A stretch of 64,000 bases of DNA from an uncultured SAR86 cluster bacterium (GTDB taxonomy: Bacteria > Pseudomonadota > Gammaproteobacteria > Magnimaribacterales > D2472), in contig CACMYW010000001.1 in the NCBI GenBank assembly GCA_902617955.1, positions 15,627 through 79,626 of the forward strand, written 5' to 3'. Below, in pieces: positions 20,743-41,493 of the stretch; position 1 is the stretch's first letter; each line of letters begins with the position of its first letter. The position numbers and the translations under genes are program-made. Under the pieces are notes generated by a model that had not been told where the DNA came from, searched no databases, and saw only the letters and a list, made by a program, of their open reading frames with translations.

Positions 20743-20763
20743 TCTTGATTTAAAAACCTATAA

Positions 20764-22449: not shown

Positions 22450-22450
22450 T

Positions 22451-27597: not shown

Positions 27598-28979
27598 CTG
27601 TAACCAGGTTTGCACCAAGCCCAACTGGAAACTTACATATAGGTGGTGTTCGGACAGCGTTATATAACTATATTTATGCTAAACAAAATGATGGCAAATT
27701 TCTTGTTCGTATTGAAGATACTGACCAAGAGCGATCAAGAGAAAAATTTGAGAAAAATATATTAGATGGATTGCAAATGATGGGCTTAGCCCCAGATGAA
27801 GATCCAGTGAAACAATCTCAAAGAGGGCATCTCTATTTAAGTGCTGCTCAAAAAATTGTTGATTTAGGTTTGGGATATTATTGTGATTGTCAGCCAAAGA
27901 GGCTTGAAAAACTTAGGAATCAACAACAAAAGGCTGGAAAAAAGCCGATGTATGATGGTAAATGTAGAGAAAGAAATCTTTCAAAGTCTGAAAATACAGT
28001 GTTACGACTCAAGACACCTAGGGATGGCGAAGTTAGGTTTAATGACTTAGTTAGAGGTGAGGTAATATTCGATAATTGCGAGTTAGATGATCTTATTTTA
28101 TTGAGAAGTAATGGCAATCCAACGTATCACTTATGTAATGTTGTTGATGATGCTGCTCAGGGAGTTACAACTGTTATTAGAGGTGAAGACCACCTTAGCA
28201 ATACTCCAAGACAAATCCATATTCAAGAGGCTCTAGGACTGCCTGCTCTGGAATATGCTCATCTTCCTCTAGTCCTTGGAGAAAATAAAAAAAGGCTTTC
28301 AAAAAGGGATGCAGTTACAAGTCTTGATGAATATATAGCTTCAGGATATTTACCATCCTCAATGGTCAATATGTTGGCAAGACTTGGATGGTCTAAAGGG
28401 GATAAAGAAATCTTTTATTTAGATGACTTAATTAAAGACTTTAGAATGCAGGAAGTTCAAAAAGCAGGAGCAGTTTTTGATATTAAAAAACTTGATTGGA
28501 TTAATACCAATCATTTAGCTAATTTAGATTTAGAAGAGTTTATTGATCATCTGAAACCTTATTTAAAAAAAGAGAATATCAGTCTTGAGTCAAAGGATAA
28601 TTTGAAAGAAATAATTTCTCATTTAAGAACCTCATCACCAACTTTGGCTTCAATTAGTCAAGATTTAATTCCATACTTTTTAGATATTAAGACATATGAT
28701 CAAAAATCTGTTGATAAGTTTCTTATAGGCTCCAAGCCTTTATTGGAGTTCGTTCTAAGACAGTTAGAATCGATTGAACCATGGAGTGAAGATCAATTGG
28801 ATGATGTGCTTGCAAAATGCCAAAAAGACCTTGATCTTAATACACCGCAACTTAATCAACCAATAAGAGTTGCCGTGGTTGGCTCAACAAAATCTCCGTC
28901 TTTGGGTTTAACACTTTCTTTGATTGGCAAAGAGGTTTCTATTGAAAGAATAAAAAAAGCAATTGAGTTTAACGATTAA
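27594..28979 (+). CDS. gltX: Glutamate--tRNA ligase
   Basis: HIGH-type motif PTGNLHIGG and a KMSKS-like RLSKR. I prefer the ATG at 27594 (ATGA overlap with the dnaQ stop) over 27582. Confidence 0.92.
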   Translation: MTVTRFAPSPTGNLHIGGVRTALYNYIYAKQNDGKFLVRIEDTDQERSREKFEKNILDGLQMMGLAPDEDPVKQSQRGHLYLSAAQKIVDLGLGYYCDCQPKRLEKLRNQQQKAGKKPMYDGKCRERNLSKSENTVLRLKTPRDGEVRFNDLVRGEVIFDNCELDDLILLRSNGNPTYHLCNVVDDAAQGVTTVIRGEDHLSNTPRQIHIQEALGLPALEYAHLPLVLGENKKRLSKRDAVTSLDEYIASGYLPSSMVNMLARLGWSKGDKEIFYLDDLIKDFRMQEVQKAGAVFDIKKLDWINTNHLANLDLEEFIDHLKPYLKKENISLESKDNLKEIISHLRTSSPTLASISQDLIPYFLDIKTYDQKSVDKFLIGSKPLLEFVLRQLESIEPWSEDQLDDVLAKCQKDLDLNTPQLNQPIRVAVVGSTKSPSLGLTLSLIGKEVSIERIKKAIEFND

Positions 28980-29473
28980 GAAGAATAATTTCTACAAAAA
29001 TAAAGTGTCTTAGTATTGAATTGTGTGGACCAATCATTCTCACTTCCATATTCAAAAATAATTTTATCTTGATCTATTAGTTTATTAATAGAGAGCCCAT
29101 GTAACTGATCGTTATGGATTTCTTTTTTTGAAAAAACCTTATATTTAAATTTTTTTGTAGATAATATCTCTTCATCGACAAAGTGATAATAGTTTTTGTC
29201 GAAATCCATGAATTTCAACTCATCTTCTTTTAAATCTTTTGGATAATCCTGAAGTATTTTTTGAGTTTTTTTTAACAATTCTTCTGAGCTGTACTTGAAA
29301 ATGCTTATACAGCTCGGATTGTCATCATAAACATTTAAAATATGATTTCTTTCATAATGACTAAACTCTAAAATTGATCTTGCCAGTGGTGCATGTGAAT
29401 TTTCATAATGCTCCATAAACTGATCTTGCGATAATGAAGGTTTTTTAAATATAAATGATATTGCTTTAATCAA
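28976..29473 (-). CDS. EthD-domain-like protein (function unknown)
   Basis: The N-terminus IFKKPSLSQDQFMEHYENSHAPLA resembles EthD / dimeric alpha-beta-barrel proteins. Overlaps ggt by 8 nt. Confidence 0.45.
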   Translation of the reverse strand: MIKAISFIFKKPSLSQDQFMEHYENSHAPLARSILEFSHYERNHILNVYDDNPSCISIFKYSSEELLKKTQKILQDYPKDLKEDELKFMDFDKNYYHFVDEEILSTKKFKYKVFSKKEIHNDQLHGLSINKLIDQDKIIFEYGSENDWSTQFNTKTLYFCRNYSS

Positions 29474-31202
29474 TTTGGATGGCTACTCCAGAATTAGGTC
29501 TTCTTAAATCAGCATACCCATAGCGGATGTTATCAATTATATGAATACTTTGTGTGCTACCCATAGTTTTAGATTCTTCAGCCTCATGGCCTAATTTATT
29601 AAGTATGGCAATTATGTCTGAGCTCACTGAGGACTCATGTGTTAATCCAGAATAGGGCCAATCTTTATGAATTCTTGGAAGCATCGTTGCTTCACCTATA
29701 TCCAAGTCAAAATCAATAATGCCTGATATTACTCTTAGAGCAGCGGCAGGGATAAATGAGCCACCAGGCGACCCTGTAATAAGAAATATACCATTATCTT
29801 TATTTTTCACTATTACCGGATTCATTGTACTCATTGGGCGTTTTCCGGGCTCAAATTTATTGCCTGGACTGCTGCTTCTGCTTATTTCTGAAGCATCACC
29901 ATATTTAAAGGCAAAGTTGTTCATTTGATTATTCATCAAAATACCAGTTCCTGGAATTGTTACACCCGAACCAAATGAATATCCAAGTGTGTATGTATTT
30001 GATACGGCATTTCCTTCCTTGTCGATAATTGAGTAATGAGTTGTATCTCTACTTTCATTGATTACTTCAATAGGCTTAATCTCATTGGCAGGTAAAGCGG
30101 TATTGAATTTAATTTTTTGAGCATGCTCTCTAGCATGTTTTTTATCAACTAAACTACTAATTGGAACATCATAAAATTCAGGATCACCAACATTTCTTGA
30201 TCTTGCATGATGACCTTTTCTTAATGCCTCAGCAATTAAATGGTATGTGACAGCTGAATTTTCTTTGTATTTATTTAAATTAAATGATTCAAGTACATTC
30301 AGTGCATTTATTAATACTACACCACCCCCTGATGGCGGACCTTGGGTAAAGACAGTATTTCCTCTATATTTTGTTGAGATAGGTGTCTGAATTCTTGCTG
30401 TATAACTAGCCAAATCATCCAGATTAATAAAACTTTTATTATCTGAAAACGCCTCAGCGATTTTCTGAGCTATTTCGCCTTGATAAAAACCATCTTTTCC
30501 ATTTTTAGCAATTAAACTTAATGTATTAGCCAAATCAGGTCTTTTCATTAAAGAATGAATGGCTAATGGTGCTTCATTGCTAAAATATATTCTTCTTGAT
30601 TCAGGATCACTATATAGCTGCGGCGCACTCTTTATGGCATGGTGTAAATCATAAGAGACTATGATTCCTTCTCTGGCTTGCCTAATTACAGGAGCAATAA
30701 CCTTATTCAAGGATAGTTTACCGTAACGTTCATGAGCTTCTAGAAGGCCAGCAACAGTACCTGGAACTGTTGAGGCAAAATATCCATAACGCACTAAATC
30801 TCTATTTATGTCCTCATAATTATCTGGAAGACTTTTTTTAAATATTTCGAATAAGTCTGCATTCTTTGAAGATGCTCCTCGATAATCAATTGAAATTATT
30901 TCATCCCTCTCTTTTAAATAAACTAAAAGAAAACCCCCGCCACCTAAATTTCCAGCACGTGGAAGTGTAATAGCAAGAGAAAATCCGACCGCGACAGCAG
31001 CATCAATTGCATTGCCACCCATTTCTAATATCTCAATACCTATATCAGAAGATTCTTTATTTTGAGAGACAACCATTCCAGAGTTACCCACCACTGGATG
31101 AAAGGGAGAGCGATAATCAATATAGCTTTCTTGACCATACAAGCCTAAGCTTGAAAAAAAGAAGACAAAGTTAAAAGATATTTGGCGCAACATAATAAGC
31201 AA
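29466..31202 (-). CDS. ggt: Gamma-glutamyltranspeptidase
   Basis: Signal peptide, autoprocessing/nucleophile Thr context ESRDTTHYSI, and GSPGGS near the C-terminus. Confidence 0.92.
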   Translation of the reverse strand: MLIMLRQISFNFVFFFSSLGLYGQESYIDYRSPFHPVVGNSGMVVSQNKESSDIGIEILEMGGNAIDAAVAVGFSLAITLPRAGNLGGGGFLLVYLKERDEIISIDYRGASSKNADLFEIFKKSLPDNYEDINRDLVRYGYFASTVPGTVAGLLEAHERYGKLSLNKVIAPVIRQAREGIIVSYDLHHAIKSAPQLYSDPESRRIYFSNEAPLAIHSLMKRPDLANTLSLIAKNGKDGFYQGEIAQKIAEAFSDNKSFINLDDLASYTARIQTPISTKYRGNTVFTQGPPSGGGVVLINALNVLESFNLNKYKENSAVTYHLIAEALRKGHHARSRNVGDPEFYDVPISSLVDKKHAREHAQKIKFNTALPANEIKPIEVINESRDTTHYSIIDKEGNAVSNTYTLGYSFGSGVTIPGTGILMNNQMNNFAFKYGDASEISRSSSPGNKFEPGKRPMSTMNPVIVKNKDNGIFLITGSPGGSFIPAAALRVISGIIDFDLDIGEATMLPRIHKDWPYSGLTHESSVSSDIIAILNKLGHEAEESKTMGSTQSIHIIDNIRYGYADLRRPNSGVAIQID

Positions 31203-32607
31203 AAATTGTGACTAGAAGAATTCCAATGATATTTAAGGCAAAACCAGCCCTTATCATATCAGGGATACTAAATTTATTAGAGCCAAAAACAATTGCATTA
31301 GGTGGAGTTGCAACAGGCAGCATAAATGCACAACTAGCAGCCAACACAACCGGAATTGTAAGTGATATTGGTAATACCCCAATGGAAATGGCCACTGCAC
31401 CCACAACTGGTAAGAAGGTGCTGGTTGTCGCAACATTGGAAGTAATTTCTGTTAAAAATATTATCAAAGTAGCAACGCATAGTATAAGAATTATCGGAGG
31501 TACTGATTGAAGAACGGATAATCCTTCTCCAATCCATAGACCAAGACCTGATGATCCAATTTGTGCAGCAAGCGAAAGCCCACCACCAAATAATACTAGA
31601 AGTCCCCATGGGAGTTTGTTAGCTTGATCCCAAGTTAAAAGATCTTTTTTATGCATCGAAGAGGGGATGATAAAAAACAACAAAGCAATAAATAACCCAA
31701 CACCAGCATCTGTGAGTAATTCAAAACCTGGAATTTGATTAATTAATTTTCTAAACATCCATGCTAGAGCAGCAAGAATAAAAATACATAAAACCTTCTT
31801 TTCATCTTTAGTCAAAACACCTAAATCATCTAACATGCTTTGAAGCTTCGCCTTAGTCTCAATAGTTGCTTCAAACTTAACTGGATAAACTATTTTTGTT
31901 AGGACATACCATGAGGCTATCAACATCAGAGAGGACAGCGGTACTCCAAGTTTCATCCAATCAATAAATGATATTTCAATGTTATAGGTCTCTTGCATGA
32001 ATCCAGCAAAAATAATATTAGGTGCAGTACCAACAAGAGTAGACATTCCTCCAATCGTTGCTGCATATGCAATCCCAAGTAAGAGCGCAACTTCAAAACT
32101 TTTTCTTTCGCTTGCACCCATGTTTGGAATCGAGGAAGCAACAGAAGCACAAACTGCAAGCCCAATTGGAAGCAGCAATAATGTCGTTGAGGTATTCATC
32201 ACCCACATACTTATAAGAGCTGAGACTAACATGAAGCCACCAACTAATTTTGCACCACTGCTTCCGACAAGAACAAGCATTTGCAATGCAAGGCGTTTAT
32301 GTAATCCAGATGCTTCAATTCCAAGAGCTAAAATAAAGCCACCCATAAATAAATAAACGTTTGGATTAGCATAGGGTAAAGCTGTAGTCTTTATATCAGC
32401 AACGCCTAGCAGTGGAAATAAGATTAAAGGTAGTAGGGCAGTTACAGCAACAGGAACTGCTTCAGTTGCCCACCAAGCAGCCATTAAGACTGTAACTGAG
32501 GCTACAATCCAACCCGCCTCGCTTAGCCCACTAGGAGGCTGCAATAGATTAAATAAAACAAACAGAGAAACACCTACCCAAAAACCTTTTTTCTTATAAG
32601 CCTGCAT
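31171..32607 (-). CDS. DASS/SLC13-family sodium-coupled anion (di/tricarboxylate or sulfate) symporter
   Basis: 478-aa polytopic membrane protein with DASS-like N-terminal and hairpin regions (AWWATEAVP, ANPNVYLFMGGF, PPNAIVFGS). Confidence 0.8.
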   Translation of the reverse strand: MQAYKKKGFWVGVSLFVLFNLLQPPSGLSEAGWIVASVTVLMAAWWATEAVPVAVTALLPLILFPLLGVADIKTTALPYANPNVYLFMGGFILALGIEASGLHKRLALQMLVLVGSSGAKLVGGFMLVSALISMWVMNTSTTLLLLPIGLAVCASVASSIPNMGASERKSFEVALLLGIAYAATIGGMSTLVGTAPNIIFAGFMQETYNIEISFIDWMKLGVPLSSLMLIASWYVLTKIVYPVKFEATIETKAKLQSMLDDLGVLTKDEKKVLCIFILAALAWMFRKLINQIPGFELLTDAGVGLFIALLFFIIPSSMHKKDLLTWDQANKLPWGLLVLFGGGLSLAAQIGSSGLGLWIGEGLSVLQSVPPIILILCVATLIIFLTEITSNVATTSTFLPVVGAVAISIGVLPISLTIPVVLAASCAFMLPVATPPNAIVFGSNKFSIPDMIRAGFALNIIGILLVTIFAYYVAPNIF

Positions 32608-33467
32608 TATTTAAGCCTTTCATAAAAAAGTTCTGCTGCAAAAGGAACCATTTGTTTTGTATTGCTATGACCATCTTTTGTAGGCACTTCAACTAAACCC
32701 CATTTTAAAAAAGTATCTAATTCATTCGACTTCTTCAACACTCCATTAAAGAAATTTCTGCCGCGCTCCAATCGATGCTTACCTTGATCAGTTACCTTAT
32801 CAAATATACTTGCAACATAAGGGGTATTAGGTTTTGTAGACACATCACTCATGCCAAGCATGAGTAGGAAATACTTATTAAAAGCATCTTTGAGCATAGT
32901 ATCTGAGATGCCTGACTTATTTAAACCAAAAGGCCAATCTTTGTCTGTCATGGTTAGATACCAACCTAAATTTGCTGCTATCGCAAGTGTATAACTGGAT
33001 TGCGGGTTGTGTATGACATATCTGTGAACAAAATGAGCACCAGCACCATGCCCGTATATCCCCCAATGATCAGAACGTACTTTAAACCTATTCAATGATT
33101 CTTTTACTAACGGTTCAATCAAAGAGAACAGTCTAGATTCAATCGATTGTTTTTGCCCATCCGCATTAAAGACATTTCCATAATTATATGTGTGCACACC
33201 TGGAAATTTATCTTCACTAAATTCTGGAACAAGGACTACAAGATTTAAATCTTTAGCATAATCAACCCACTGGTCTCTGTACTCCTCTGCATTTCTCTTT
33301 CGTCCATGCATCACTACAACCAGCCTAGTGTCTTTATTGATCCTATTGGGAGTCACATAAAAAATTGGAACATCTAAAATAGATGCAGTTGAAAAATTAA
33401 AAACGTCTTCATCTGCAAAAATAGCAAATGAAAATAGGGCAACTAAGATTAATAATTTTTTCATCAT
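32607..33467 (-). CDS. Secreted alpha/beta-hydrolase-fold protein (esterase/depolymerase-like) with Gly at the expected nucleophile position
   Basis: Signal peptide MMKKLLILVALFSFAIFA and an HG oxyanion context VVVMHGRKRN. The nucleophile-elbow context is WGIYGHGAGAHFVHRY, i.e. G-H-G-A-G instead of G-H-S-A-G. Confidence 0.55.
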   Translation of the reverse strand: MMKKLLILVALFSFAIFADEDVFNFSTASILDVPIFYVTPNRINKDTRLVVVMHGRKRNAEEYRDQWVDYAKDLNLVVLVPEFSEDKFPGVHTYNYGNVFNADGQKQSIESRLFSLIEPLVKESLNRFKVRSDHWGIYGHGAGAHFVHRYVIHNPQSSYTLAIAANLGWYLTMTDKDWPFGLNKSGISDTMLKDAFNKYFLLMLGMSDVSTKPNTPYVASIFDKVTDQGKHRLERGRNFFNGVLKKSNELDTFLKWGLVEVPTKDGHSNTKQMVPFAAELFYERLK

Positions 33468-33517
33468 AAAAAAGGGAGCATGCGCTCCCTTTATTAAGTT
33501 AACAATAATTAATGGTA

Positions 33518-36466
33518 TTAGAATTTTTTGAAAAACTCTATAGAGAAATTTTTACCATAATCTGTATGAAGATCGGCCCAAAATCCACCATAGGTCTCAT
33601 CTGCCACAGGAGCTCTTTCATCCTCAAGGTTTTTAACTTGTAATCTAACCCTAAGGTCATTATCAAATTTATATCCCAATGTAAGATTTAATACCGTCAT
33701 AGAGTCAACAGGCCATAGAAGCTCATTTCCGTCAGCGTCTGTACCTTCTTTATGCCCAGTTTCTCCGAACTCACCCCACTGTGTTCCTGATAGGAAAACT
33801 TCATAAGGACCATTTCTCCATCCTAGCTTCATAGTGTATTTGTCCTCAATGGCACCATTAATTCCAAGGAGGTTATTTACTCCAGTTGGTGTTGCAATAC
33901 CATTAAGAAGACCGCCTGGTGCTGCGGCGTTACTAAGACGTGCTGCATCACCACCAGCTTCTTGATTTTTAGTATCGTAATGAACATTTACGAATTTAGC
34001 TGAGAATTCTCCAAAGTCAGTATCTATTGAGTATAGAATGCTTGTATCAAAGCCTTCAATTGTTCTAAGGTCACCATTGACGTAATAGTCATTAATTCTT
34101 TGCACAAGACCAGCTGGACAAAGGTTTTTAGCCGACCAATTAACACCCGTGGTTTCAATATCAGTACTCCTAATTACATTTGGATTTCCAGTACACTCAG
34201 AGGGCCCGCCTTCTAATCTGATAAGAAGGTCTAAGAGTAAAGCATTGTCCATTCCAAAAATACCTACGGTGTCTTCTGTTTCGATAGACCATTTATCGAG
34301 AGTAATAATTAAATTATCTATTGGTTCTAAAACCAAACCAATAGACTCATTTTCACCTAGTTCAGCCTTCAAACCTTTGTTGCCTTCGGTAACTCTTTGC
34401 ATAGAATAGCCGCTGTCATAGGTATCTGGATCTAATGCCACGAAATCAAGCAAATCATCACCTTTTGACGAACTTCTTCCCAAATAGCCTTCATTTACAA
34501 GAATCAAAGCAGGAGCTCTAAAAGTCTCTGAAAATGCATAGCGCAACTTAACTTGATCAATCGGCTGCCATCCTAATGCTATCTTTCCAACTGTTGCGTC
34601 ACCATAGTCATCAGCATCTTCATATCGAACAGCAATCTGAGCATCTACAGTTTCGTGCAGAGGAATTTGAAATTCAGTAAAAATAGATGTCGTTGTTCTT
34701 GAACCACTAGAAGCTGGAGTTGCACTTGAGTTAATAACATCCGATATAATCGGGAATGTTTCTCCTGCTTTTGGTCTTCCGGCTGGCACTGTATAGGTTA
34801 CTCTTCCGTCGATTCTAGGATCTCTTCCATCAACATATTCTTCTTCCCTTGATTCAAAACCAAACAATGCAGCTACTGGCCCTGCTGGTAATTCATAGAT
34901 ATTATTGTTGGATATCTTGAAATCAACCAAGAGTAATTCGGTGGTATTTTCTCTAAAAATATCTATCAAGAAGGGCGTTTCATCACTACAGCCATTACCA
35001 CCACAAAATGGGTTATATGCATTAGGGGTTGATAATGCAATATTTTGATCAAATAATGTCATTGACATTCTGTTAAAGTTTTTTTGCTTGGACTTTGCAT
35101 CTGACCATAAAATTGCGCCATCCCAATCCCAGTCTCCTAACGCACCTCTGAAGCCTTGTAAAAATCTAAGTGTTACTCTGTCAGAGTCATAACCACGAGG
35201 TGAATCAAATCTGTGCCTAGATTTAAATAAACCTAAACCATTTTTGATTACACTAGAGTCATCAACTAACTTATTACCACTATCATCAACCAGTTGTTGT
35301 AACCAATAGTTTGAGGTTGGAATTAAGAGCGGTTGAGTACATTTACCACTTTTCCCGCAACTTCCAGAGCCAAGACTTGTTCCAGGAAATAACATTTGTG
35401 TAGCAAAAGAATGATAGTAGCCAATCTCCGTGTATGCTTCTACTCCATTGGATAATTCGCTATTGATGAAAACAAATAAATTTTCTCTTTGCAGGTCAGG
35501 CCGCATCCAGCGAGTGTCATTATATCTAGATCTTAGTGAGTCTGATGCAATGGAATTTTTACTTGAAGTATAGAGACAAGTATCACCCCCGGTACCTGTA
35601 TAAGCACAATTTCCTGTATTTGGCCTTACATGTAAGTAGTTTGCACCACCGCTCCAGATACCATACCTGGATTGGTCACTTGTATTTCTAAAGCTTGTAT
35701 CTAAAAACACTTTGCCTTCATAAGGCTCTACCAACCCTCCAGGGACTTTTCTTGGATCTGCTGTAAGCCATTTAGGATCTTCATCACCTCTGATTTCTTC
35801 ACGGTGATAGGCATCAAAATAAATTGAAACATTTGTATTACCAATATCTTTACCCCACTGAGCACTGACTTTATGATCAGTAGCAGCAAAATGGTCATAT
35901 TTACTCATTCTGTATCTAACATTAGTACCAACAAAGTTTGACTTAAGAACAGTATTTACAACACCAGCTAGAGCATCAGCTCCATAAATCGCTGAAGCAC
36001 CATCCCTTAAAATTTCGATTCTGTCAGCACCATGGACAGGTATTGCATTTGAATTACTTGTAAAGACCGGCATACTTCCACCTAAAATTGGCTCAGTCTG
36101 ATAGCCTGGCGAAGTAATTAATCTTCTTCCATTAAGGAGTACTAGAGTATTACCGGTACCAATGTCCCTTAAATTAAAAGCACCTACGTCACCCCTTGAA
36201 GCATTATAGCCTCCGCTAAATTCATTTTGATTAAAAGTATTTTGACCCAGTTCAGCAATGTTATCTAAAAGCTCATCACCAGATTCAACACCCAGCGCAT
36301 CAATATCATCACTTGATATGATTGATACTGGCAGTGCTCCAGTAATCTTAGCTCCCTTTATTTGTGAACCTACCACAACCACTTCTTCAATTTCTTGATC
36401 AGATTGTGCTAATAGACCTAATGGTAAAATTAAGCCCATACTCAATAAAGCATTTTTAAATTTCAT
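33518..36466 (-). CDS. TonB-dependent receptor
   Basis: I prefer the ATG at 36466 (MKFKNALLSMG..., SD AGGGGA). TonB box EEVVVVGSQI, plug motif SAIYGADALAGVVNTVLK, C-terminal Phe. Confidence 0.9.
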   Translation of the reverse strand: MKFKNALLSMGLILPLGLLAQSDQEIEEVVVVGSQIKGAKITGALPVSIISSDDIDALGVESGDELLDNIAELGQNTFNQNEFSGGYNASRGDVGAFNLRDIGTGNTLVLLNGRRLITSPGYQTEPILGGSMPVFTSNSNAIPVHGADRIEILRDGASAIYGADALAGVVNTVLKSNFVGTNVRYRMSKYDHFAATDHKVSAQWGKDIGNTNVSIYFDAYHREEIRGDEDPKWLTADPRKVPGGLVEPYEGKVFLDTSFRNTSDQSRYGIWSGGANYLHVRPNTGNCAYTGTGGDTCLYTSSKNSIASDSLRSRYNDTRWMRPDLQRENLFVFINSELSNGVEAYTEIGYYHSFATQMLFPGTSLGSGSCGKSGKCTQPLLIPTSNYWLQQLVDDSGNKLVDDSSVIKNGLGLFKSRHRFDSPRGYDSDRVTLRFLQGFRGALGDWDWDGAILWSDAKSKQKNFNRMSMTLFDQNIALSTPNAYNPFCGGNGCSDETPFLIDIFRENTTELLLVDFKISNNNIYELPAGPVAALFGFESREEEYVDGRDPRIDGRVTYTVPAGRPKAGETFPIISDVINSSATPASSGSRTTTSIFTEFQIPLHETVDAQIAVRYEDADDYGDATVGKIALGWQPIDQVKLRYAFSETFRAPALILVNEGYLGRSSSKGDDLLDFVALDPDTYDSGYSMQRVTEGNKGLKAELGENESIGLVLEPIDNLIITLDKWSIETEDTVGIFGMDNALLLDLLIRLEGGPSECTGNPNVIRSTDIETTGVNWSAKNLCPAGLVQRINDYYVNGDLRTIEGFDTSILYSIDTDFGEFSAKFVNVHYDTKNQEAGGDAARLSNAAAPGGLLNGIATPTGVNNLLGINGAIEDKYTMKLGWRNGPYEVFLSGTQWGEFGETGHKEGTDADGNELLWPVDSMTVLNLTLGYKFDNDLRVRLQVKNLEDERAPVADETYGGFWADLHTDYGKNFSIEFFKKF

Positions 36467-36491
36467 AGTATCCCCTAAATGTTGCATTTAA

Positions 36492-36520
36492 ATATTAGCA
36501 ATTTTATTCAAATATCTCAA
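36492..36520 (-). promoter_or_regulatory. Putative sigma70 promoter of the minus-strand TBDR gene
   Basis: On the minus strand, TTGAGA-N17-TAATAT lies in the 77-nt gap after the M20 gene stop. Confidence 0.3.
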
Positions 36521-36543
36521 AAATATGACAAAGTATCATTTGA

Positions 36544-37980
36544 TTAATTTCGATAATCTAAAGGTGGCTCTCGATTTCCTAGTAAAGGCTCATATTGAAA
36601 TTTATCACCCGTTCTAATTCTTAATTCCTCTTTGGCTTGATCAATTAACGAGGTATCTAATAACAACTCTATCGCAGTTTCAGACAATATTTCAGCAGCT
36701 AACTTTGTGCCTTTAAGGCCAATTGATGTTCCACCAGCAGCCACGGCTTGCCATGAGTGTGCAGACGTACCTGGAACCCAAGTAGCAATTCTTACTCCGC
36801 CTGTAGGAACAACCCAGCTAATATCGCCAACGTCAGTAGAACCATAACCATGAGTTTCTCTGTAAGGCAGAACATTTTTTTGGTCACCAATTTTTCCAGA
36901 TGGACTCACAAGTGTTTGATAAATTTTTTCTGCATATTTTTTTTCATTTTTATCGTAACTAATGCCACCCCTTTTAGTTAACTTTTGATACATCACTTTT
37001 TGAATAGCATCATTAGGTAGCAAAGAATAATTACCATGCATAATTTCGTAAGTCACCTTAGTATCAGTGCCAATAGCTGCGCCTTCAGCGGCTTTTACAA
37101 CCCTTTGAAATAGCTCATTTACCATGTGCATTTCAGGGTGCCTGACGTAGTAATAAACCTCAGCAACATCGGGAACAACATTTGGAGCCAAACCACCTTT
37201 CGTAATTACATAATGAATTCTTGAATCTTGTGGGATATGCTCACGCATTAAATTCACCATCATATTCATCGATTCGACGCCATCGAGTGCAGACCTCCCT
37301 TTATCGGGTGATCCGGCTGCATGAGCTGATATACCATTGAATGTAAATTTGGCTGATTTATTTGCATTTGATGTTCTAGGATTTGCATGATTTACACTAC
37401 CAGGATGCCAGTGAAGGGCTATATCAACATCCTCAAAGAGACCTTCACGAACCATGTATACTTTTCCAGAGCCACCTTCCTCAGCTGGAGTTCCATAAAA
37501 TCTTACGGTTCCAGGAGTTTTAGTTTTTTCAATCCATTCTTTTATGGTGACTGCTGCCCATGCAGAAGCAGCACCAAATAAGTGATGTCCACAGGCATGA
37601 CCAGCTATCCTGTCAGATCGTGTTTCTTTGAATGGAGATGACGTTTGCATTACACCGGGCAATGCATCGTATTCACCCAAAATACCAATAACAGGTCCTC
37701 CATTTGAATACTCGGCAACAAAAGCAGTAGGAATATCAGCCACCCCAGTTGTAATTTTGAATCCATTTTTTTTAAGAGTATTAATTAGAATTTCTGAACT
37801 CTTGTATTCTTGATAACCAACTTCAGCTAAATCCCATATATCCATCGCAACATTTTCAAATGTTGATTGGTGTTTTTTAATAGATTGATTTACTGAATTT
37901 TGTGCGGCATCTAGTGATGCAATAAATAGTGTTAAGAGACCAACACTGAGTCTTTGTACTTGATTGCTTTTCCAACCCAT
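36544..37980 (-). CDS. M20-family amidohydrolase, AbgB-like (p-aminobenzoyl-glutamate hydrolase subunit B family), secreted
   Basis: It aligns along its length with my recollection of E. coli AbgB (GILGEYDALPG, GHACGHHL, VRFYGTPAEEGGSGKVYMVREG, HAAGSPDKGRSALD). Unlike AbgB, it has an N-terminal signal peptide (LSVGLLTLFIASLDAA). Confidence 0.8.
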   Translation of the reverse strand: MGWKSNQVQRLSVGLLTLFIASLDAAQNSVNQSIKKHQSTFENVAMDIWDLAEVGYQEYKSSEILINTLKKNGFKITTGVADIPTAFVAEYSNGGPVIGILGEYDALPGVMQTSSPFKETRSDRIAGHACGHHLFGAASAWAAVTIKEWIEKTKTPGTVRFYGTPAEEGGSGKVYMVREGLFEDVDIALHWHPGSVNHANPRTSNANKSAKFTFNGISAHAAGSPDKGRSALDGVESMNMMVNLMREHIPQDSRIHYVITKGGLAPNVVPDVAEVYYYVRHPEMHMVNELFQRVVKAAEGAAIGTDTKVTYEIMHGNYSLLPNDAIQKVMYQKLTKRGGISYDKNEKKYAEKIYQTLVSPSGKIGDQKNVLPYRETHGYGSTDVGDISWVVPTGGVRIATWVPGTSAHSWQAVAAGGTSIGLKGTKLAAEILSETAIELLLDTSLIDQAKEELRIRTGDKFQYEPLLGNREPPLDYRN

Positions 37981-39386
37981 TCTTCTTCCCTCATGTTTTT
38001 TAAAATATCTACTTCACTTGATGTTACAACTTTTCTTTTTCCTTGCAAATCCTCAATGTATATAACTGCTTTCTCAGCATCTAATTGATCAAATAAAACT
38101 GTGTAACCGATGACATGCCCATCTCCAGACTCAAAAGCAGACATTTCTTTTGGAAGATCAATTTTTTCAGCCTCCTCAGTAGTATCCAAATGTGTGAACT
38201 CATCTAATTTAATTCCTGACCAAAGGCCAAAAGCCTGTTTTGTCATCATCCCTGAGACACCTGTTATTAAAGCGATATTATCTGGATTCTCTCGCAATAG
38301 AAGTAACGCCTGTACTGTGGCGTGAAGCATGTAGTTATTCAGAGGTCCACCAGCAAATGGCATTCCTCCGGTAATAGTTTTTGGTATTGAGGGATCTAGT
38401 TCAAGGACGTTTTCACATTGTTGGATAGCAACTGGGAAACAGCTATACAGGTCAACGATTGATGGGAGCTTCCCGTAATTTGAAATCTTTTTATTTATAT
38501 ATGCTGCAGACAATTCCAATCCAGCAGAACTTACAAAGCTTGGTCTTTCAATAAGAGCGAGCATATGGTTAGTTTCAGATGAAGCCAGTGGATATGATCT
38601 TTTATTTTTTGGGATCTTTAATTTATCAGCTATCTCTTCATCAACAATAATCATCGCGGACGCCTGATTAACATTCCATGAGGTGTTATGCAATTTGTTG
38701 TATGGGTATGCAATTGGTTTATTTTTTGAAGAGGGCTCACTAATTTCGTTAGGCTGATACTCTTTTTGATTCCATGCATGAGGATTTTTTGCAGCAATCT
38801 GAGAAAAATCTGCATACATATTTGATAGATAATATTCATGTTCCTTTAAAGAGTGATCTTTGTGAAATCTCATAGCACTCTCAAGAACCGCATAATAACC
38901 AACAGCCATCAATCCAAGTGCTTCAGCTTCTTGTGGTCCATACAAATCATCTTTTGCTTTAACGTACATATCTGGATTTGTGTTTAGCTCCAGCTCTTTG
39001 AAGTCTTTTTTTTCCTTTAAAGCAGCAATCATTTTTGCTCTAGATTCACCACCAAGAATAAGGCCACCACGGATTTCACCATTTTGAATTCTTAGCGCAG
39101 CAGAATTTATGAGGTGTTGTTGTAAAACCCCGATCTTATTAACACTTGTTTTTGCATGCTGAAAACCATGCTTTTCTCCAATCCACTTACCTGGATCTCT
39201 ATATGCCCAAAAACCCTTGGGTATGTCAATAATGTCAATGTAGTCAGTAATTTTTGGGTTGCCACAATCCTCAATAGCAGATACCGTAGCTTCTTCCATC
39301 AAAATTAATGCTTCATCCAGCTCATCATATGCTCCATGTTGTTGGATTATTCCGAGACCAACAACGACAGGTGTTTTTTTACTCAT
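37932..39386 (-). CDS. Thiolase-fold protein lacking the catalytic cysteines, with an extra C-terminal domain
   Basis: 484 aa with thiolase/SCP2-thiolase-like blocks (VDLYSCF, TGGMPFAGGPLNNY). There are only three Cys in total, none between residues 42 and ~315 where the nucleophile sits, and no C-terminal CxGGG. Confidence 0.55.
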   Translation of the reverse strand: MSKKTPVVVGLGIIQQHGAYDELDEALILMEEATVSAIEDCGNPKITDYIDIIDIPKGFWAYRDPGKWIGEKHGFQHAKTSVNKIGVLQQHLINSAALRIQNGEIRGGLILGGESRAKMIAALKEKKDFKELELNTNPDMYVKAKDDLYGPQEAEALGLMAVGYYAVLESAMRFHKDHSLKEHEYYLSNMYADFSQIAAKNPHAWNQKEYQPNEISEPSSKNKPIAYPYNKLHNTSWNVNQASAMIIVDEEIADKLKIPKNKRSYPLASSETNHMLALIERPSFVSSAGLELSAAYINKKISNYGKLPSIVDLYSCFPVAIQQCENVLELDPSIPKTITGGMPFAGGPLNNYMLHATVQALLLLRENPDNIALITGVSGMMTKQAFGLWSGIKLDEFTHLDTTEEAEKIDLPKEMSAFESGDGHVIGYTVLFDQLDAEKAVIYIEDLQGKRKVVTSSEVDILKNMREEEWVGKAIKYKDSVLVS

Positions 39387-39477
39387 AAGTTCAAGAGATT
39401 AATTTAGCGAAGATATCTTGAAATGCTCTGTATAGCAACTAGCCATAAAACAATTTAGAATAGCCAATCTAAATATT

Positions 39478-39553
<76 letters not shown>

Positions 39554-39584
39554 AAATTATTAACAAAGAATATAATTGTTAAAA

Positions 39585-40403
39585 ATGCGTATTAAGTTAA
39601 ATAATGCTTTTATTGCACTAAGTCTAATCTTTGCAACTTCTGTTTCTTCAGAGAATCTAATTCCAAACATTAAATCTACAAAATCAAATGATATTAAATC
39701 TGTAATGTTTGTGGGGCACAGTTTTTTTTATTACAACAACAGCCTCCATAACCAACTTGGAAAACTAATTAAGGCTGATCCACAAATAGGCGATATCAAA
39801 AGGCGCTCAATTACTATCAATGGGTCTTCATTGTCTTGGCATAATGTTGAGAGTTATTTAAGTAACGAAAATATCGGCAGTTTTAAAATCGATGCCAACA
39901 AAGACAACTCGTACATCGAATATGATGAGACCTCTGTAGATGCAGTAATAATGGCTGATTGCAGTCTTTGCCCAATTCACCCAAAGACTAAAGAAGCCTT
40001 CTATAGTTACGTTGTAAAACATTCAAAAACTATTAGAAAAAATAAAGCAGAGCCCATACTTTTTATGACCTGGGGCTATAAAAATAAACCAACAATGTAT
40101 AAAAAACTTAAAAAAGAATTTTTAAAAGTAGCGAATTTAAATAATCTACTTCTTATTCCAGCTGGAGAAGCATTTGATCTTGGAAATAAGTCTCATCCCG
40201 AAATTAATTTATACACCAGTGATAACAGGCACCCTTCAGAAGAGGGCACCTACCTTGCCGCAAGTGTTGTATTTGCGACCCTCTTTGGACGCAGCACCGA
40301 AGGTAATAGAGGAGTTGGTAATATCGAGCCATCCGTTGCAATCAAACTTCAGAGGATAGCCGACAAAACAGTTTCTGAATTTTTTAATATACAATTAAAA
40401 TGA
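39585..40403 (+). CDS. SGNH/GDSL-like hydrolase (DUF4886-like), secreted
   Basis: I prefer the ATG at 39585 (signal peptide MRIKLNNAFIALSLIFATSVSS). Block I-like FVGHSFFYYNN and C-terminal DNRHPSEEGTYLAA. Confidence 0.55.
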   Translation: MRIKLNNAFIALSLIFATSVSSENLIPNIKSTKSNDIKSVMFVGHSFFYYNNSLHNQLGKLIKADPQIGDIKRRSITINGSSLSWHNVESYLSNENIGSFKIDANKDNSYIEYDETSVDAVIMADCSLCPIHPKTKEAFYSYVVKHSKTIRKNKAEPILFMTWGYKNKPTMYKKLKKEFLKVANLNNLLLIPAGEAFDLGNKSHPEINLYTSDNRHPSEEGTYLAASVVFATLFGRSTEGNRGVGNIEPSVAIKLQRIADKTVSEFFNIQLK

Positions 40404-40407
40404 AATA

Positions 40408-41493
40408 ATGATCATCGGGGTTCCTAAAGAGGTTAAAAATAATGAATACAGGGTCGGCTTAACTCCTGAATCGAGTATGGCTCTTTGCAAAGAGGGGCAT
40501 CAGGTATTAATTCAATCAGATGCTGGCAGCTCAATTGGTTTCAGTAATCAAGATTATATTAATTCAGGGGCCAAAGTAATTGATGAAGCCGAGGAAGTAT
40601 TTAATAAATCAAATCTCATCATTAAAGTTAAAGAACCTATTGAGCAAGAATTGGATTATCTTCGGGAGGACTTGACGTTGTTCACTTATCTTCATCTTGC
40701 TGGAAATCCCGAAAGTGCAAAAAAGATCGTAAGTACTGGCGTTACTGGTATCGCTTATGAGACTGTAACTGACGAGAACAATGCTTTGCCATTACTGGCC
40801 CCCATGAGCGAAATCGCAGGGCAAATTAGTATAGTAGTAGGCTCATATAATTTACTTAAGCACAATCATGGAAAAGGGGTTTTGCTTGGATCATTTCAAA
40901 GTTTAGATTCGAGAGTTGTTACCGTAATCGGTGGGGGAGTCGCTGGCGCCCAAGCCATTGAGAAGGCAATGGATAATAAGGCTATTGTAAATGTGATTGA
41001 TTTATCCATGGATAAATTGAATTCCCTAAAGGCAAAATACGGCGAAGATAATATTAATTACATTCAATCATCTTCTGAAGCTATTTTTGAAAGCATTAAA
41101 AAATCTGATTTAGTGGTGGGATCGGTGTATGTGATTGGAAAAGAAGCTCCCAAGATTATAACTAGGGAAATGATTCGTGAAATGTCACCAGGAACTGTAA
41201 TGGTAGATATTTCTATTGATCAAGGTGGGTGCTTTGAGACCAGCAAACCGACTACTCATGATGAGCCTACATTCCTAGTAGATGATGTTGTTCATTATTG
41301 CGTTACTAATATGCCAGGTGCAGTCCCTTTAACTGCTTCACTTGCTTTAAATAAGGCAACTTTGCCTTACATAAAATTGCTAGCAAATTTAGGCGTTAAA
41401 GAGGCTTTAAATCAAAATGCAGGTTTGAAGAATGGTCTCAACATTTCACAAGGTGAAATCAAGCACCAAGCAGTAAATGAAGCATTAAGTTGA
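40408..41493 (+). CDS. ald: Alanine dehydrogenase
   Basis: MIIGVPKEVKNNEYRVGLTP N-terminus and NAD-binding VIGGGVAG. Confidence 0.92.
   Translation: MIIGVPKEVKNNEYRVGLTPESSMALCKEGHQVLIQSDAGSSIGFSNQDYINSGAKVIDEAEEVFNKSNLIIKVKEPIEQELDYLREDLTLFTYLHLAGNPESAKKIVSTGVTGIAYETVTDENNALPLLAPMSEIAGQISIVVGSYNLLKHNHGKGVLLGSFQSLDSRVVTVIGGGVAGAQAIEKAMDNKAIVNVIDLSMDKLNSLKAKYGEDNINYIQSSSEAIFESIKKSDLVVGSVYVIGKEAPKIITREMIREMSPGTVMVDISIDQGGCFETSKPTTHDEPTFLVDDVVHYCVTNMPGAVPLTASLALNKATLPYIKLLANLGVKEALNQNAGLKNGLNISQGEIKHQAVNEALS

Follow-up and report, generated by a model that had tools for sequence, protein, structure and literature searches.

Outer-membrane receptor genes in the abundant marine bacterium SAR86 can lie beside genes for predicted exported amide-cleaving enzymes and a dicarboxylate importer. 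This raises the question of whether such a group of genes serves the uptake of one compound and what kind of compound this would be. Here, we analysed a locus of seven genes, encoding a thiolase-like protein, an M20 amidohydrolase, a receptor (TBDR), an alpha/beta-fold protein, a DASS symporter, a GGT-family enzyme and an EthD-like protein. Our answer is tentative and falls somewhat short of an even chance: a SAR86-lineage, TBDR-centred nutrient-scavenging locus for an anionic amide-linked compound, the acyl part of which is probably a C5 dicarboxylate.

Gene layout and transcription units

All seven open reading frames were found on the minus strand at positions 28976-39386 of the window (the whole 64,000-nucleotide stretch of SAR86 DNA that was analysed), reproducing exactly the genes and coordinates of the first-pass annotation. 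Its family assignments (GGT, DASS, TBDR, M20, EthD and thiolase-fold) also hold in profile searches. The upstream boundary is a plus-strand tRNA-Ala(GGC) gene (39478..39553), beyond which the flank varies between SAR86 lineages, with an AOX gene upstream in L088 and L090 and a TauD gene in L081, L083 and L084, directly upstream of the thiolase-like gene in the latter two.

The reported overlaps of 49 nt between the thiolase-like and M20 genes and of 8 nt between the GGT and EthD genes were both recovered. The alpha/beta stop and the DASS start have 1 nt in common, and DASS and GGT overlap by 32 nt (TTG start) or 23 nt (next ATG). Such tight junctions could suggest an operon. However, 15 of the 32 same-strand neighbour pairs in the window overlap, 23 of 32 have a gap of at most 10 nt, and coding sequence makes up about 95% of the window. 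Tight junctions are the norm throughout this genome and therefore provide no operon evidence. The widest gaps within the locus, 50 and 56 nt, both border the TBDR gene.

The TBDR (989 aa; 33518..36487, minus strand) consists of plug and beta-barrel domains, and a PDB sequence comparison found no close solved relative. Going by its orthologues, translation probably begins at the Met at 36466, the L001 orthologue beginning at the equivalent of MKLKY... In the M20-TBDR spacer, a candidate sigma-70-like promoter, TTGAGA-17-TAATAT with an extended TG, was located at 36492..36520 (minus strand); this is a consensus match only, as the promoter scan gave more matches in shuffled sequence than in the region itself. 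A LysR gene occupies this position between M20 and TBDR in L004, L084 and L089. Between the TBDR stop and the alpha/beta ATG lies an intrinsic-terminator-like hairpin, AAAGGGAGC-GCAT-GCTCCCTTT followed by TTT (33471..33492, minus strand), a motif found a single time in the window, where 0.01 occurrences are expected. A strong terminator hairpin with a variable loop directly follows the TBDR stop in all nine SAR86 loci examined, and the window's other three TBDR genes likewise possess terminators of their own. In addition, leuB (TIGR00169, 466 bits) is found between DASS and GGT in L089. The conserved terminator and the LysR and leuB insertions speak against a single clean operon and suggest that the locus is divided into two or three transcription units, probably thiolase-like plus M20, TBDR, and alpha/beta-DASS-GGT-EthD. 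The last group may be expressed via read-through of the terminator.

Predicted enzymes and carrier

Signal peptides were judged by a crude n/h/c-region heuristic. The N-termini of the M20 enzyme, the TBDR, the alpha/beta protein and the GGT are signal-peptide-like by this measure, in agreement with the earlier assignment for the M20 enzyme, the alpha/beta protein and the GGT, while those of the thiolase-like and EthD proteins are not.

The alpha/beta-fold protein (286 aa; 32607..33467, minus strand) belongs to the PahZ1 family according to its PDB sequence matches (6VE6, E 5e-41; 9O7U, 3e-30; 3D0K, 3e-28), and its structural model (pLDDT 93.4) gives TM values of 0.83/0.90 to 6VE6. Gly141 replaces the catalytic Ser (GHGAG vs GHSAG), while Asp208, His267 and Arg232 are kept. 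The motif YGHGAGA was present in 120 of 120 close homologues, and G141, D208, R232 and H267 are invariant among 46 non-redundant clade members; about 140 of some 145 more distant cluster representatives have the Ser. Judged from its sequence, the protein is paralogous to the poly-aspartate hydrolase PahZ1 but lacks the catalytic serine, and the earlier count of three secreted hydrolases is wrong in this respect.

In comparison with PahZ1/PahZ2 of Sphingomonas sp. KT-1 and Pedobacter sp. KP-2, which serve poly(aspartic acid) degradation, the locus protein has the fold of PahZ1, falls into the same sequence family and keeps the Asp, the His and the equivalent of Arg246, the Arg that positions the substrate. 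Its putative signal peptide agrees with the reported periplasmic location of PahZ1, the cationic surface of which binds polyanionic poly(aspartate), and an apparently exported metallopeptidase is encoded near it, just as PahZ2 accompanies PahZ1 (PMC13017698). In contrast to these enzymes, the Ser of GHSAG is Gly throughout the SAR86 clade and the gene sits in a TBDR and DASS context. PahZ2 itself was not among the PDB matches of the M20 enzyme at E 1e-5 or better. Elsewhere, fusion proteins join PahZ1-like domains with PGA_cap/CapA-like, M14 carboxypeptidase or PF00144 domains.

The AbgB-like M20D amidohydrolase (478 aa; 36544..37980, minus strand; TIGR01891, 248 bits, cutoff 154) is a full-length homologue of E. 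coli AbgB, with 40% identity over residues 30-474 (E 2e-112), compared with 23% to AbgA. About 22 additional residues at its N-terminus score as signal-peptide-like, and the 64-kb window contains no AbgA or AbgT homologue, so that the description of an AbgB-like, apparently exported enzyme without an AbgA partner stands. Its secretion had been contrasted with the cytoplasmic AbgB of E. coli, but it is no SAR86 peculiarity: 79 of 80 orthologues across phyla have such an N-terminus by the same heuristic, and the trait is family-wide. In E. coli, AbgB is the hydrolase subunit that frees glutamate from p-aminobenzoyl-glutamate and acts in the cytoplasm together with AbgA. The resemblance to abgABT extends to eight alphaproteobacterial loci in which orthologues of the locus M20 adjoin AbgT (PF03806, 9.5e-192); in the window, unlike in abgABT, the M20 gene is paired with TBDR and DASS. 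Orthologues in L034 and L054 adjoin a PGA_cap gene and a TBDR.

The GGT-family Ntn hydrolase (578 aa; 29466..31202, minus strand; TIGR00066, 477 bits, cutoff 358) is predicted to be periplasmic. It aligns to E. coli GGT (2E0W, E 6e-118), and 2NLZ, named a cephalosporin acylase in the PDB, is a further relative (E 1.5e-47). Its donor pocket is non-canonical, with N411G, D432N, D433N and S463T in E. coli numbering, whereas R114, T391, T409, Q430, S462 and G483/G484 are retained. N411G and D433N recur in all locus GGT orthologues examined. In E. coli GGT, D433N abolishes transpeptidation, leaves 82% of hydrolysis and confers glutaryl-7-ACA acylase activity, and class IV cephalosporin acylases naturally possess Asn at this position (PMC8062742). 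Asn433 of the locus enzyme is, at the sequence level, the signature of class IV cephalosporin (glutaryl-7-ACA) acylases and of the engineered D433N enzyme; unlike these acylases, the locus enzyme is closer to E. coli GGT and also carries N411G and D432N. The family assignment is confirmed, but the gamma-glutamyl chemistry proposed with it should not be assumed, as residues binding the alpha-amino group are changed. Since E. coli D433N still hydrolyses gamma-glutamyl donors, the altered pocket does not exclude glutathione.

The DASS Na+-coupled anion symporter (478 aa; 31171..32607, minus strand; TIGR00785, 285 bits, cutoff 199) has NaCT, NaDC1, NaDC3, NaS1 and VcINDY as its best PDB matches (1e-60 to 1e-77), compared with about 1e-7 for entries deposited only as 'DASS family sodium-coupled anion symporter'. 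It is named 'sodium-dependent dicarboxylate transporter 2/3/5' in the sources, and its sequence places it in the SLC13/VcINDY di-/tricarboxylate symporter group. SLC13/INDY-type DASS proteins carry di-/tricarboxylates or sulfate, not amino acids or peptides.

Conservation within and beyond SAR86

The order of the window recurs in 11 further SAR86 loci (L001-L004, L081-L084 and L088-L090). Across these loci, identity is 58-84% for the alpha/beta protein, 74-99% for DASS and 57-96% for GGT, and the nucleophile-less PahZ1 paralogue lies between a TBDR and DASS in 12 of 12 SAR86 loci examined. Another SAR86 clade (L008 and L012) has a rearranged cluster, TBDR>DASS> <GGT<GGT ... M20>, in which TBDR, DASS, the variant GGT and M20 are kept within 11 kb; its flanks consist entirely of genes that lack window orthologues. 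Both loci contain two tandem GGT copies, of which the DASS-adjacent one is the variant (G411/N433) and the second is canonical. Outside SAR86, the M20 orthologue occurs without the locus partners in about 70 loci. The expected co-localisation in related genomes is thus real within SAR86 but restricted to this lineage. Conservation is just as strong for the adjacent housekeeping genes gltX, rnt, rnhA, mltD and oppBC, and strong general synteny of this SAR86 region could explain most of the conserved order.

The TBDR position holds at least four deeply divergent types, of which the window copy is type A. These types are only 36-48% identical, while the set of enzymes stays the same, and the way in which the types are distributed disagrees with the phylogeny of the adjacent genes. 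Such swapping beside a constant set of enzymes leaves two readings: a receptor that is not matched to the enzymes in substrate, or types that are all isofunctional.

Proposed function and rival explanations

The route suggested by the first-pass annotation, TBDR import followed by periplasmic processing and DASS uptake, is partly supported: the gene content is as annotated, but the alpha/beta protein lacks its catalytic Ser and the GGT is non-canonical. Since two of the "hydrolases" are unusual variants, a nutrient-scavenging system is plausible yet putative, and we infer all five of its steps. The TBDR, with its own putative promoter and its terminator, would bring the compound in, and the PahZ1-derived periplasmic protein would bind or present the polyanionic substrate without cutting it. 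The GGT-family enzyme, without the Asp that holds the alpha-amino group, may then hydrolyse an omega-amide without transpeptidation, and the exported M20 enzyme may cut an acyl-glutamate-type amide. Finally, the DASS symporter would import the freed dicarboxylate with Na+. The most likely acyl part, as far as the sequences indicate, is of glutaryl type or a gamma-glutamyl group with a blocked alpha-amino group; oligo-/poly-gamma-glutamyl chains and N-acyl-glutamates may serve as example substrates.

A literature search found no description of this gene combination, consistent with the earlier claim that no TBDR-AbgB-GGT-DASS system had been described. The succession of TBDR, periplasmic enzymes and inner-membrane carrier resembles Bacteroidota PULs as well as the already documented SAR86 loci in which TBDR genes neighbour lineage-specific catabolic enzymes (Dupont et al. 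2012, PMC3358033). Unlike in those loci, the chemistry here is of the amide/acyl kind and the TBDR gene is set apart by a terminator from the genes downstream of it. Profile searches assigned none of the seven products to a SusD, glycoside-hydrolase or lipase family. In Helicobacter and Campylobacter, a periplasmic GGT likewise yields an acidic product that is then imported. These GGTs are canonical and are combined with other glutamate carriers, whereas in the locus the Asp that binds the alpha-amino group is missing from the GGT pocket and an SLC13/INDY-type DASS serves as carrier.

Alternatively, the genes may have no common substrate and be unrelated scavenging and housekeeping genes packed into a streamlined, highly syntenic genome, with a self-contained, often exchanged TBDR perhaps under phage-driven selection. 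The short gaps, the high coding density, the terminator on every TBDR gene of the window, the incongruent TBDR types, the leuB and LysR insertions, the absence of a detectable EthD-like gene in L002 and L003, the equally syntenic flanks and the solitary M20 orthologues outside SAR86 all fit this explanation. Nevertheless, we consider it rather unlikely, since the cluster of TBDR, DASS, variant GGT and M20 persists in L008 and L012 although it is rearranged there and its flanks are completely different, and the GGT next to DASS in these loci is the variant-pocket copy. The constant place of the PahZ1 paralogue between TBDR and DASS also speaks against it, as does the fit of the predicted chemistries, which combine dicarboxylate-releasing acyl-amide hydrolases with a dicarboxylate symporter.

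An improbable option is scavenging of glutathione or gamma-glutamyl-thiols for reduced sulfur, whereby GSH, GSSG, gamma-Glu-Cys or phytochelatin-like peptides would enter through the TBDR and/or porins, the periplasmic GGT would remove gamma-Glu, M20 would trim the rest to Cys and DASS would recover the acidic product. SAR86 is without assimilatory sulfate reduction and its GGTs have been proposed to tap glutathione sulfur (PMC3358033; PMC11582366); the locus GGT exceeds the TIGR00066 equivalog cutoff, the hydrolytic activity left in E. coli D433N (PMC8062742) would permit such a role, and CysK-like and CysE genes adjoin the L081 locus together with the TauD-family gene seen also in L083 and L084. 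However, neither the window nor the flanks of L001-L004, L088 and L090 contain these sulfur genes, the locus has no Cys or Cys-Gly transporter, and the general substrate range of SLC13/INDY-type carriers does not fit. Moreover, the residues that bind the alpha-amino group of glutathione are altered in every locus GGT, and the side-by-side canonical and variant copies in L008 and L012 suggest different jobs. Recycling or scavenging of peptidoglycan stem peptides, in which the variant GGT would cut the gamma-D-Glu-mDAP bond (the alpha-amine of D-Glu being acylated) and M20 and other peptidases would finish, appears highly improbable. An N-blocked gamma-glutamyl donor would suit the loss of the alpha-amino-binding Asp, the L008 cluster includes a PF00144 serine hydrolase and an S51 peptidase, and the fusions of PahZ1-like domains to PF00144 and M14 point the same way; we take PF00144 to be the D-Ala-D-Ala carboxypeptidase/D-aminopeptidase family. 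This case is purely inferential. The locus in the window encodes neither an amidase nor a glycosidase nor a muropeptide permease and lacks the PF00144 and S51 genes, and mDAP and peptides fall outside the DASS substrate range.

Two products have no role in the proposed scavenging of an amide-linked dicarboxylate. The thiolase-fold protein (484 aa; 37932..39386, minus strand) matches PRK08257 models (1.7e-72, below their cutoffs) and no Pfam family. Its sole PDB relative is 4EGV from M. smegmatis (E 7e-32), deposited as acetyl-CoA acetyltransferase and presumably thiolase-like protein type 1 (TLP1); on our reading of the alignment, neither has Cys at the thiolase nucleophile position. Its gene adjoins M20 only in the main SAR86 clade. 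The EthD-like protein (165 aa; 28976..29473, minus strand; PF07110, 29.7 bits, cutoff 22) is 40-59% identical in other loci and is the product of a variable accessory gene, which overlaps the convergent gltX by 4 nt.

Gene content and probable transcription units of the locus

The window, which belongs to a SAR86 gammaproteobacterium, has a GC content of about 36%, and about 95% of it is coding. Seven minus-strand open reading frames were found in the locus, and their positions and overlaps agree exactly with the first-pass annotation. The most upstream gene (37932-39386) encodes the thiolase-like protein, which matches PRK08257 models with scores below the model cutoffs. It is followed by the M20 gene (36544-37980; TIGR01891 amidohydrolase, 248 bits against a cutoff of 154), the TBDR gene (33518-36487; PF07715, 9.8e-14, and PF00593, 1.8e-23), the gene for the alpha/beta protein (32607-33467), which has no Pfam match, the DASS gene (31171-32607; TIGR00785, 284.7 bits against a cutoff of 198.6), the GGT gene (29466-31202; TIGR00066, 477.4 bits against a cutoff of 357.85; PF01019, E 3e-144) and the EthD-like gene (28976-29473; PF07110, a weak Pfam match above the cutoff). 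A plus-strand tRNA-Ala gene (39478-39553) bounds the locus upstream and the convergent gltX gene bounds it downstream. The 3' ends of gltX (plus strand) and the EthD-like gene (minus strand) overlap by 4 nt (28976-28979), which shows the compactness of this genome.

A simple n/h/c heuristic recognized signal-peptide-like N-termini in the M20 protein, the TBDR, the alpha/beta protein and the GGT, so that the signal peptides claimed earlier for the M20 protein, the alpha/beta protein and the GGT are retained at the level of this heuristic. By the same heuristic, the thiolase-like and EthD-like proteins have no such N-terminus. In contrast to a SusC/SusD-type polysaccharide utilisation locus with its SusD-like lipoprotein and carbohydrate-active enzymes, the SAR86 locus gave no match to SusD or to glycoside-hydrolase families among its seven products in Pfam and NCBIfam. 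The sole PDB relative of the thiolase-like protein is 4EGV (deposited as an acetyl-CoA acetyltransferase), which we take to be TLP1, the type 1 thiolase-like protein of M. smegmatis. As the alignment reads, neither protein has a cysteine at the usual position of the thiolase nucleophile, and no role can be assigned to the thiolase-like protein in the model proposed below.

The first-pass annotation had pointed out the tight gene junctions. Overlaps and short gaps are widespread in the window: 15 of the 32 same-strand neighbour pairs overlap, 23 of the 32 have gaps of 10 nt or less, and overlaps of the same kind are seen between the functionally unrelated neighbours rnhA, rnt and gltX. Therefore, the junctions are not meaningful on their own.

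The widest gaps within the locus lie on both sides of the TBDR gene. In the gap 3' of this gene lies a strong hairpin resembling a terminator, AAAGGGAGC-GCAT-GCTCCCTTT and then a run of Ts, which reaches just to the ATG of the alpha/beta gene. The hairpin motif occurs once in the window against 0.01 expected occurrences, and the hairpin directly follows the TBDR stop codon in all nine SAR86 loci examined, with a constant stem and variable loops. In the spacer between the M20 and TBDR genes, a match to a sigma-70-like promoter was found. Both the promoter and the terminator calls are consensus matches, and the terminator is additionally conserved. With a terminator after the TBDR gene, the downstream genes would need either read-through or a promoter inside the TBDR gene. 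Thus, although the seven genes are co-directional, the conserved terminator and the promoter-like site do not fit a single operon, and neither do the LysR and leuB insertions seen in other genomes. A search of window positions 28000-40500 against Rfam (E ≤ 0.1) for regulatory RNAs and riboswitches matched only the tRNA-Ala.

Each of the three other TBDR genes of the window (11072-20742) also possesses a strong terminator of its own, and the TBDR genes of this genome look like self-contained units. These three large genes (1086, 1027 and 1031 aa) stand in tandem at the head of a plus-strand block (11072-24225), the rest of which encodes an OppA-like family-5 solute-binding protein and OppB/OppC permeases; two other SAR86 loci, L088 and L090, have this block past mltD.

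Relatives and active-site residues of the locus proteins

The score of the GGT exceeds the curated TIGR00066 equivalog cutoff, and the protein aligns with E. coli GGT (2E0W) at E 6e-118. The window protein and every aligned orthologue retain the Ntn nucleophile Thr391, Thr409 and the oxyanion pair Gly483-Gly484. The residues for the alpha-carboxylate of the donor, Arg114, Ser462 and Ser463, are present as R, S and T, the last being a conservative exchange (S463T). At the positions for the donor alpha-amino group, Asn411, Gln430 and Asp433, all locus copies have G, Q and N. Compared with the E. coli enzyme, the pocket therefore carries N411G, D432N, D433N and S463T and keeps Q430, and this variant is common to every locus orthologue. 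From the structure literature, we take Asn411 and Gln430 of E. coli GGT to be binders of the donor alpha-amino group. The conclusion that the gene encodes a gamma-glutamyltranspeptidase is thus correct with respect to the family, but need not extend to the canonical donor specificity, given N411G and D433N.

Asp433 binds the alpha-amino group of the gamma-glutamyl donor, and in E. coli GGT the D433N mutation abolishes transpeptidation, leaves 82% of the hydrolysis and confers glutaryl-7-ACA acylase activity (PMC8062742). Class IV cephalosporin acylases naturally possess Asn at this position (PMC8062742), as does the GGT of the SAR86 locus. Judged by its residues, the SAR86 protein is a GGT-family member without a defining feature of canonical specificity. 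Donors lacking a free alpha-amino group thereby become plausible, either glutaryl or N-acylated gamma-glutamyl groups (as in internal residues of gamma-glutamyl chains). The enzyme is of interest for enzymology because it carries the substitution that turns a GGT into a glutaryl-amide acylase in the laboratory. Two tandem GGT paralogues, convergent to the TBDR-DASS pair, are found in the rearranged clusters of another SAR86 clade (L008, 2983-6415; L012, 4843-8298). Here, the DASS-adjacent copy is the variant (G411/N433) and the second copy is canonical (N411/E430/D432/D433); the canonical donor-amino pattern occurs in this second copy only.

The nearest solved relatives of the alpha/beta protein are PahZ1 of Sphingomonas sp. 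KT-1 (6VE6, E 5e-41), PahZ1 of Pedobacter sp. KP-2 (9O7U, 3e-30) and LpqC (3D0K). Its AlphaFold model (pLDDT 93.4, pTM 0.90) superposes on 6VE6 with TM-scores of 0.83/0.90 and an rmsd of 2.0 Å (Foldseek), and the protein resembles the KT-1 and KP-2 enzymes in its alpha/beta-hydrolase fold, sequence and structure. The lipase box of PahZ1, GHSAG, contains the catalytic serine (S157 in the numbering of the KT-1 construct). The window protein has GHGAG instead, with Gly141 encoded by the codon GGT, and the catalytic serine is missing from all SAR86 loci examined. D208, H267 and R232 are kept; they correspond to the catalytic Asp, the catalytic His and the substrate-positioning Arg (D225, His and R246 in KT-1). 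The PahZ1 mutants S157A, D225A and those of R246 are impaired (PMC13017698).

The loss of the serine is shared by all 120 of the 120 closest database homologues (58-100% identical), which contain YGHGAGA, and the protein can therefore no longer be regarded as the ordinary secreted hydrolase initially proposed. Among representatives clustered at 50% identity, the SAR86 clade is isolated (398 bits, the next at most 199 bits), and about 140 of the approximately 145 other representatives have Ser at the nucleophile position. Among 46 non-redundant members of the clade (52-90% identical), no variation is seen at G141, D208, R232 and H267 or in the HGRxRN motif, which argues for a long-lived constrained variant rather than a decaying gene. 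The protein may bind a ligand without cutting it, or it may use a serine-independent mechanism; as a paralogue of poly(aspartate) hydrolases without the nucleophile, but with the remaining active site strongly constrained, it is likewise of enzymological interest. Gly was found elsewhere in only one full-length unrelated protein, the distant PahZ1-like homologue P0194 (L085, 9369-10298; YGHGAGAQFAHRF), which belongs to a second, unrelated lineage in an organism of 61% GC. Its contig was considered as a context clue and set aside: a divergent LysR gene precedes P0194, the contig ends right after it, and it is otherwise uninformative.

PahZ1 enzymes are reported to reside in the periplasm and to bind polyanions, namely poly(aspartate) and even DNA, by means of a cationic surface (PMC13017698). 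Elsewhere, PahZ1-like domains are fused to PGA_cap/CapA-like, M14 carboxypeptidase (AstE/AspA-like), PF00144 beta-lactamase-fold and Exo_endo_phos domains (homologues P0127, P0156, P0196, P0160, P0163, P0188 and P0128), and a CapA-like fusion has already been noted (PMC13017698). Combined with the polyanion-holding surface, these fusions suggest acidic poly(amino acids) or peptides as the substrates of this family.

The M20 protein shares 97% identity with its counterpart in AG-447-K20, a single-cell genome of SAR86, and the genomes that rank next belong to SAR86 as well. Its description as AbgB-like is borne out by full-length homology (residues 30-474 against AbgB 8-480, 40% identity, E 2e-112), compared with 23% identity to AbgA, and members of its cluster bear the JGI name 'aminobenzoyl-glutamate utilization protein B'. 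AbgA and AbgT were not detected in the 64-kb window by tblastn with E. coli queries, in line with the proposed lack of an AbgA partner. In contrast to the cytoplasmic AbgB, the M20 protein has an N-terminal extension of about 22 residues with n, h and c regions and an LDA|AQ site, which is signal-peptide-like by the heuristic. While the heuristic favours secretion, this is no peculiarity of SAR86: signal-peptide-like or lipoprotein-like N-termini are present in 79 of 80 orthologues, which come from different phyla, so an exported M20 protein is not a SAR86 invention.

The DASS protein matches NaCT, NaDC1, NaDC3 and NaS1 (SLC13) and VcINDY in the PDB at 1e-60 to 1e-77, which confirms its family, and the next-to-last of the PDB matches listed, which carry no deposition name other than 'DASS family sodium-coupled anion symporter', are at about 1e-7. 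These relatives would fit Na+-coupled uptake of a di- or tricarboxylate (or sulfate). In keeping with the plug and 22-strand barrel of TonB-dependent receptors, the TBDR matches both the plug and the barrel domain model and has a heuristically signal-peptide-like N-terminus; no substrate-specific TBDR subfamily model reached its cutoff, and no informative relative was found.

Conservation of the locus and divergence of its receptor

The order thiolase-like, M20, TBDR, alpha/beta, DASS, GGT, EthD-like and convergent gltX is kept in the SAR86 loci L001-L004, L081-L084 and L088-L090, so the proposed gene order recurs in other SAR86 loci. Across these loci, identity spans 58-84% for the alpha/beta protein, 74-99% for the DASS and 57-96% for the GGT. 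No EthD gene was detected in L002 and L003, and a LysR gene divergent from the TBDR gene lies between M20 and TBDR in L004, L084 and L089. The L089 cluster (2227-14245) reads M20, TBDR, LysR in the opposite direction, a second TBDR copy (98.8% identical to the first), alpha/beta, DASS, leuB and GGT, whereby a bona fide leuB (TIGR00169, 466 bits) separates DASS from GGT with junctions of 2 and 7 nt. This Iso_dh gene was considered as a clue to a hydroxy-dicarboxylate substrate and rejected, since the NCBIfam equivalog identifies an ordinary LeuB; it is evidence for loose gene packing instead. These differences between loci (undetected EthD, LysR, TBDR duplicate, leuB) argue against a rigid operon. 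Furthermore, the downstream housekeeping genes gltX, rnt, rnhA, mltD and oppCB show synteny as strong as that of the locus, and much of its conservation is therefore general synteny. In L081, L083 (104-949) and L084 (2230-3075), the thiolase-like gene is immediately preceded by a co-directional gene for a TauD-family dioxygenase, with CysE-like and CysK-like genes just past it in L081 (1225-4057 in all); TauD, CysE and CysK are absent from the window.

The informative case of conservation is L008 and L012. In these loci of the other SAR86 clade, TBDR and DASS are followed by the two opposed GGT genes and, further on, by M20 in the direction of the TBDR, all within 11 kb, and no orthologue of any flanking gene is present in the window. 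The L008 cluster also contains a PF00144 beta-lactamase-fold hydrolase and an S51 peptidase.

Outside SAR86, M20 orthologues that are 55-71% identical occur in about 70 loci (Woeseia, Flavobacteriaceae, Hyphomonadaceae, Sphingomonadales and others). None of these has a locus partner beside the M20 gene, and the expected co-localisation was not seen in these loci. In eight alphaproteobacterial loci, an AbgT transporter gene (PF03806, 9.5e-192) adjoins the M20 orthologue. Two loci from non-SAR86 Gammaproteobacteria, one of them a Woeseiaceae (L034, 8433-16124; L054, 84-8120), have a divergent PGA_cap (CapA-like) gene and a TBDR gene beside M20, the latter followed by genes for a conserved hypothetical protein and a 2OG-Fe(II) oxygenase. 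These M20-TBDR pairs were rejected as orthologues of the SAR86 pair: the TBDRs are about 23% identical over most of their length and 31-33% in the plug region, no nearer than the window paralogues, and the hypothetical gene is not related to the alpha/beta protein. A DASS homologue search for DASS-GGT pairs outside SAR86 was filled, among the matches listed, by SAR86 sequences of at least 71% identity.

At its fixed position, the TBDR exists in at least four deeply divergent types: type A in the window, L001, L081-L083 and L090; type B in L002-L004, L084, L008 and L012; type C as both copies of L089; and type D in L088. Identity amounts to 72-97% inside a type and 36-48% between types. How the types are distributed does not agree with the phylogeny of the flanking enzymes: loci whose enzymes are 87-95% identical can have TBDRs that share only 41% identity. 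The divergent tract extends into the N-terminal half of the alpha/beta protein (the first 130-200 codons or so of 32607-33467), where identity is 35-54% compared with 92% in the C-terminal part. These patterns suggest that the receptor has undergone gene replacement or diversifying selection. As co-variation would hint at physical interaction, the hypervariable half of the alpha/beta protein was compared with TBDR type, and it showed no clear linkage. A model with two TBDR alleles does not account for the additional loci, in which the types number four or more and one recent tandem duplicate occurs. Such deep receptor polymorphism at a fixed locus bears on the upkeep of receptor diversity in streamlined ocean bacteria.

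A possible route for acidic amides

In the general model, the TBDR would bring in an anionic amide-linked compound, which the serine-less PahZ1 paralogue would hold in the periplasm. The variant GGT would hydrolyse the omega-amide of a C5 dicarboxylyl group, the AbgB-like M20 protein would split an acyl-glutamate-type bond, and the DASS would import the released dicarboxylate. The main new argument for linkage is that a GGT pocket not demanding a charged alpha-amine is encoded together with a carrier of a family preferring amino-free dicarboxylates. We regard this succession of TBDR import, periplasmic amide processing and DASS uptake as a tentative reading that falls somewhat short of being probable, and any one named substrate has much less support. 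A more specific version, unlikely at present, is that SAR86 has evolved a dedicated route for polyanionic amides with glutaryl or N-blocked gamma-glutamyl groups, for instance oligo- or poly-gamma-glutamate or the tails of pteroyl- or p-aminobenzoyl-polyglutamates. PahZ1 would here have become a serine-less periplasmic protein for polyanion binding or hand-off between TBDR and DASS, and the GGT would have been retuned as a natural D433N-like mutant releasing dicarboxylate for the DASS. If true, this would represent a PUL-like system for substrates other than carbohydrates, in which a pseudo-enzyme serves for binding.

There is a real chance that the linkage is syntenic only. In this case, unrelated genes without a shared substrate would be kept together by extreme synteny and compaction, as favoured by the terminators and insertions, by the exchange of receptors and by the missing linkage outside SAR86; we consider this explanation to be on the doubtful side, though one to be taken seriously. 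Scavenging of glutathione or thiol-peptides for sulfur has already been suggested for SAR86 GGTs (PMC3358033, PMC11582366) and agrees with the TauD/CysE/CysK neighbours in some lineages, but the changes in the GGT pocket and the type of carrier speak against it and make it rather improbable, while muropeptide processing appears highly improbable.

TBDR-centred catabolic loci are of a known kind, as SAR86 TBDR neighbourhoods with lineage-specific catabolic enzymes, as well as SAR86 GGTs, have been reported (Dupont et al. 2012, PMC3358033). Our literature search found no description of the combination of TBDR, AbgB-like, PahZ1-like, DASS and GGT proteins, consistent with the earlier remark that no TBDR-AbgB-GGT-DASS system is described, nor of a Ser-to-Gly PahZ1 clade or of a GGT that naturally has Asn433/Gly411 and is linked to a DASS carrier. 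SAR86 is very abundant, and its many TBDRs, almost none of which has an assigned substrate, are thought to set its diet of dissolved organic matter. With its conserved set of receptor, enzymes and carrier, the locus offers a concrete case and a well-defined, testable hypothesis, in which the enzymes point towards acidic amide-linked compounds rather than sugars or lipids. Since a SAR86 isolate exists (PMC11582366), expression and growth tests are becoming possible.
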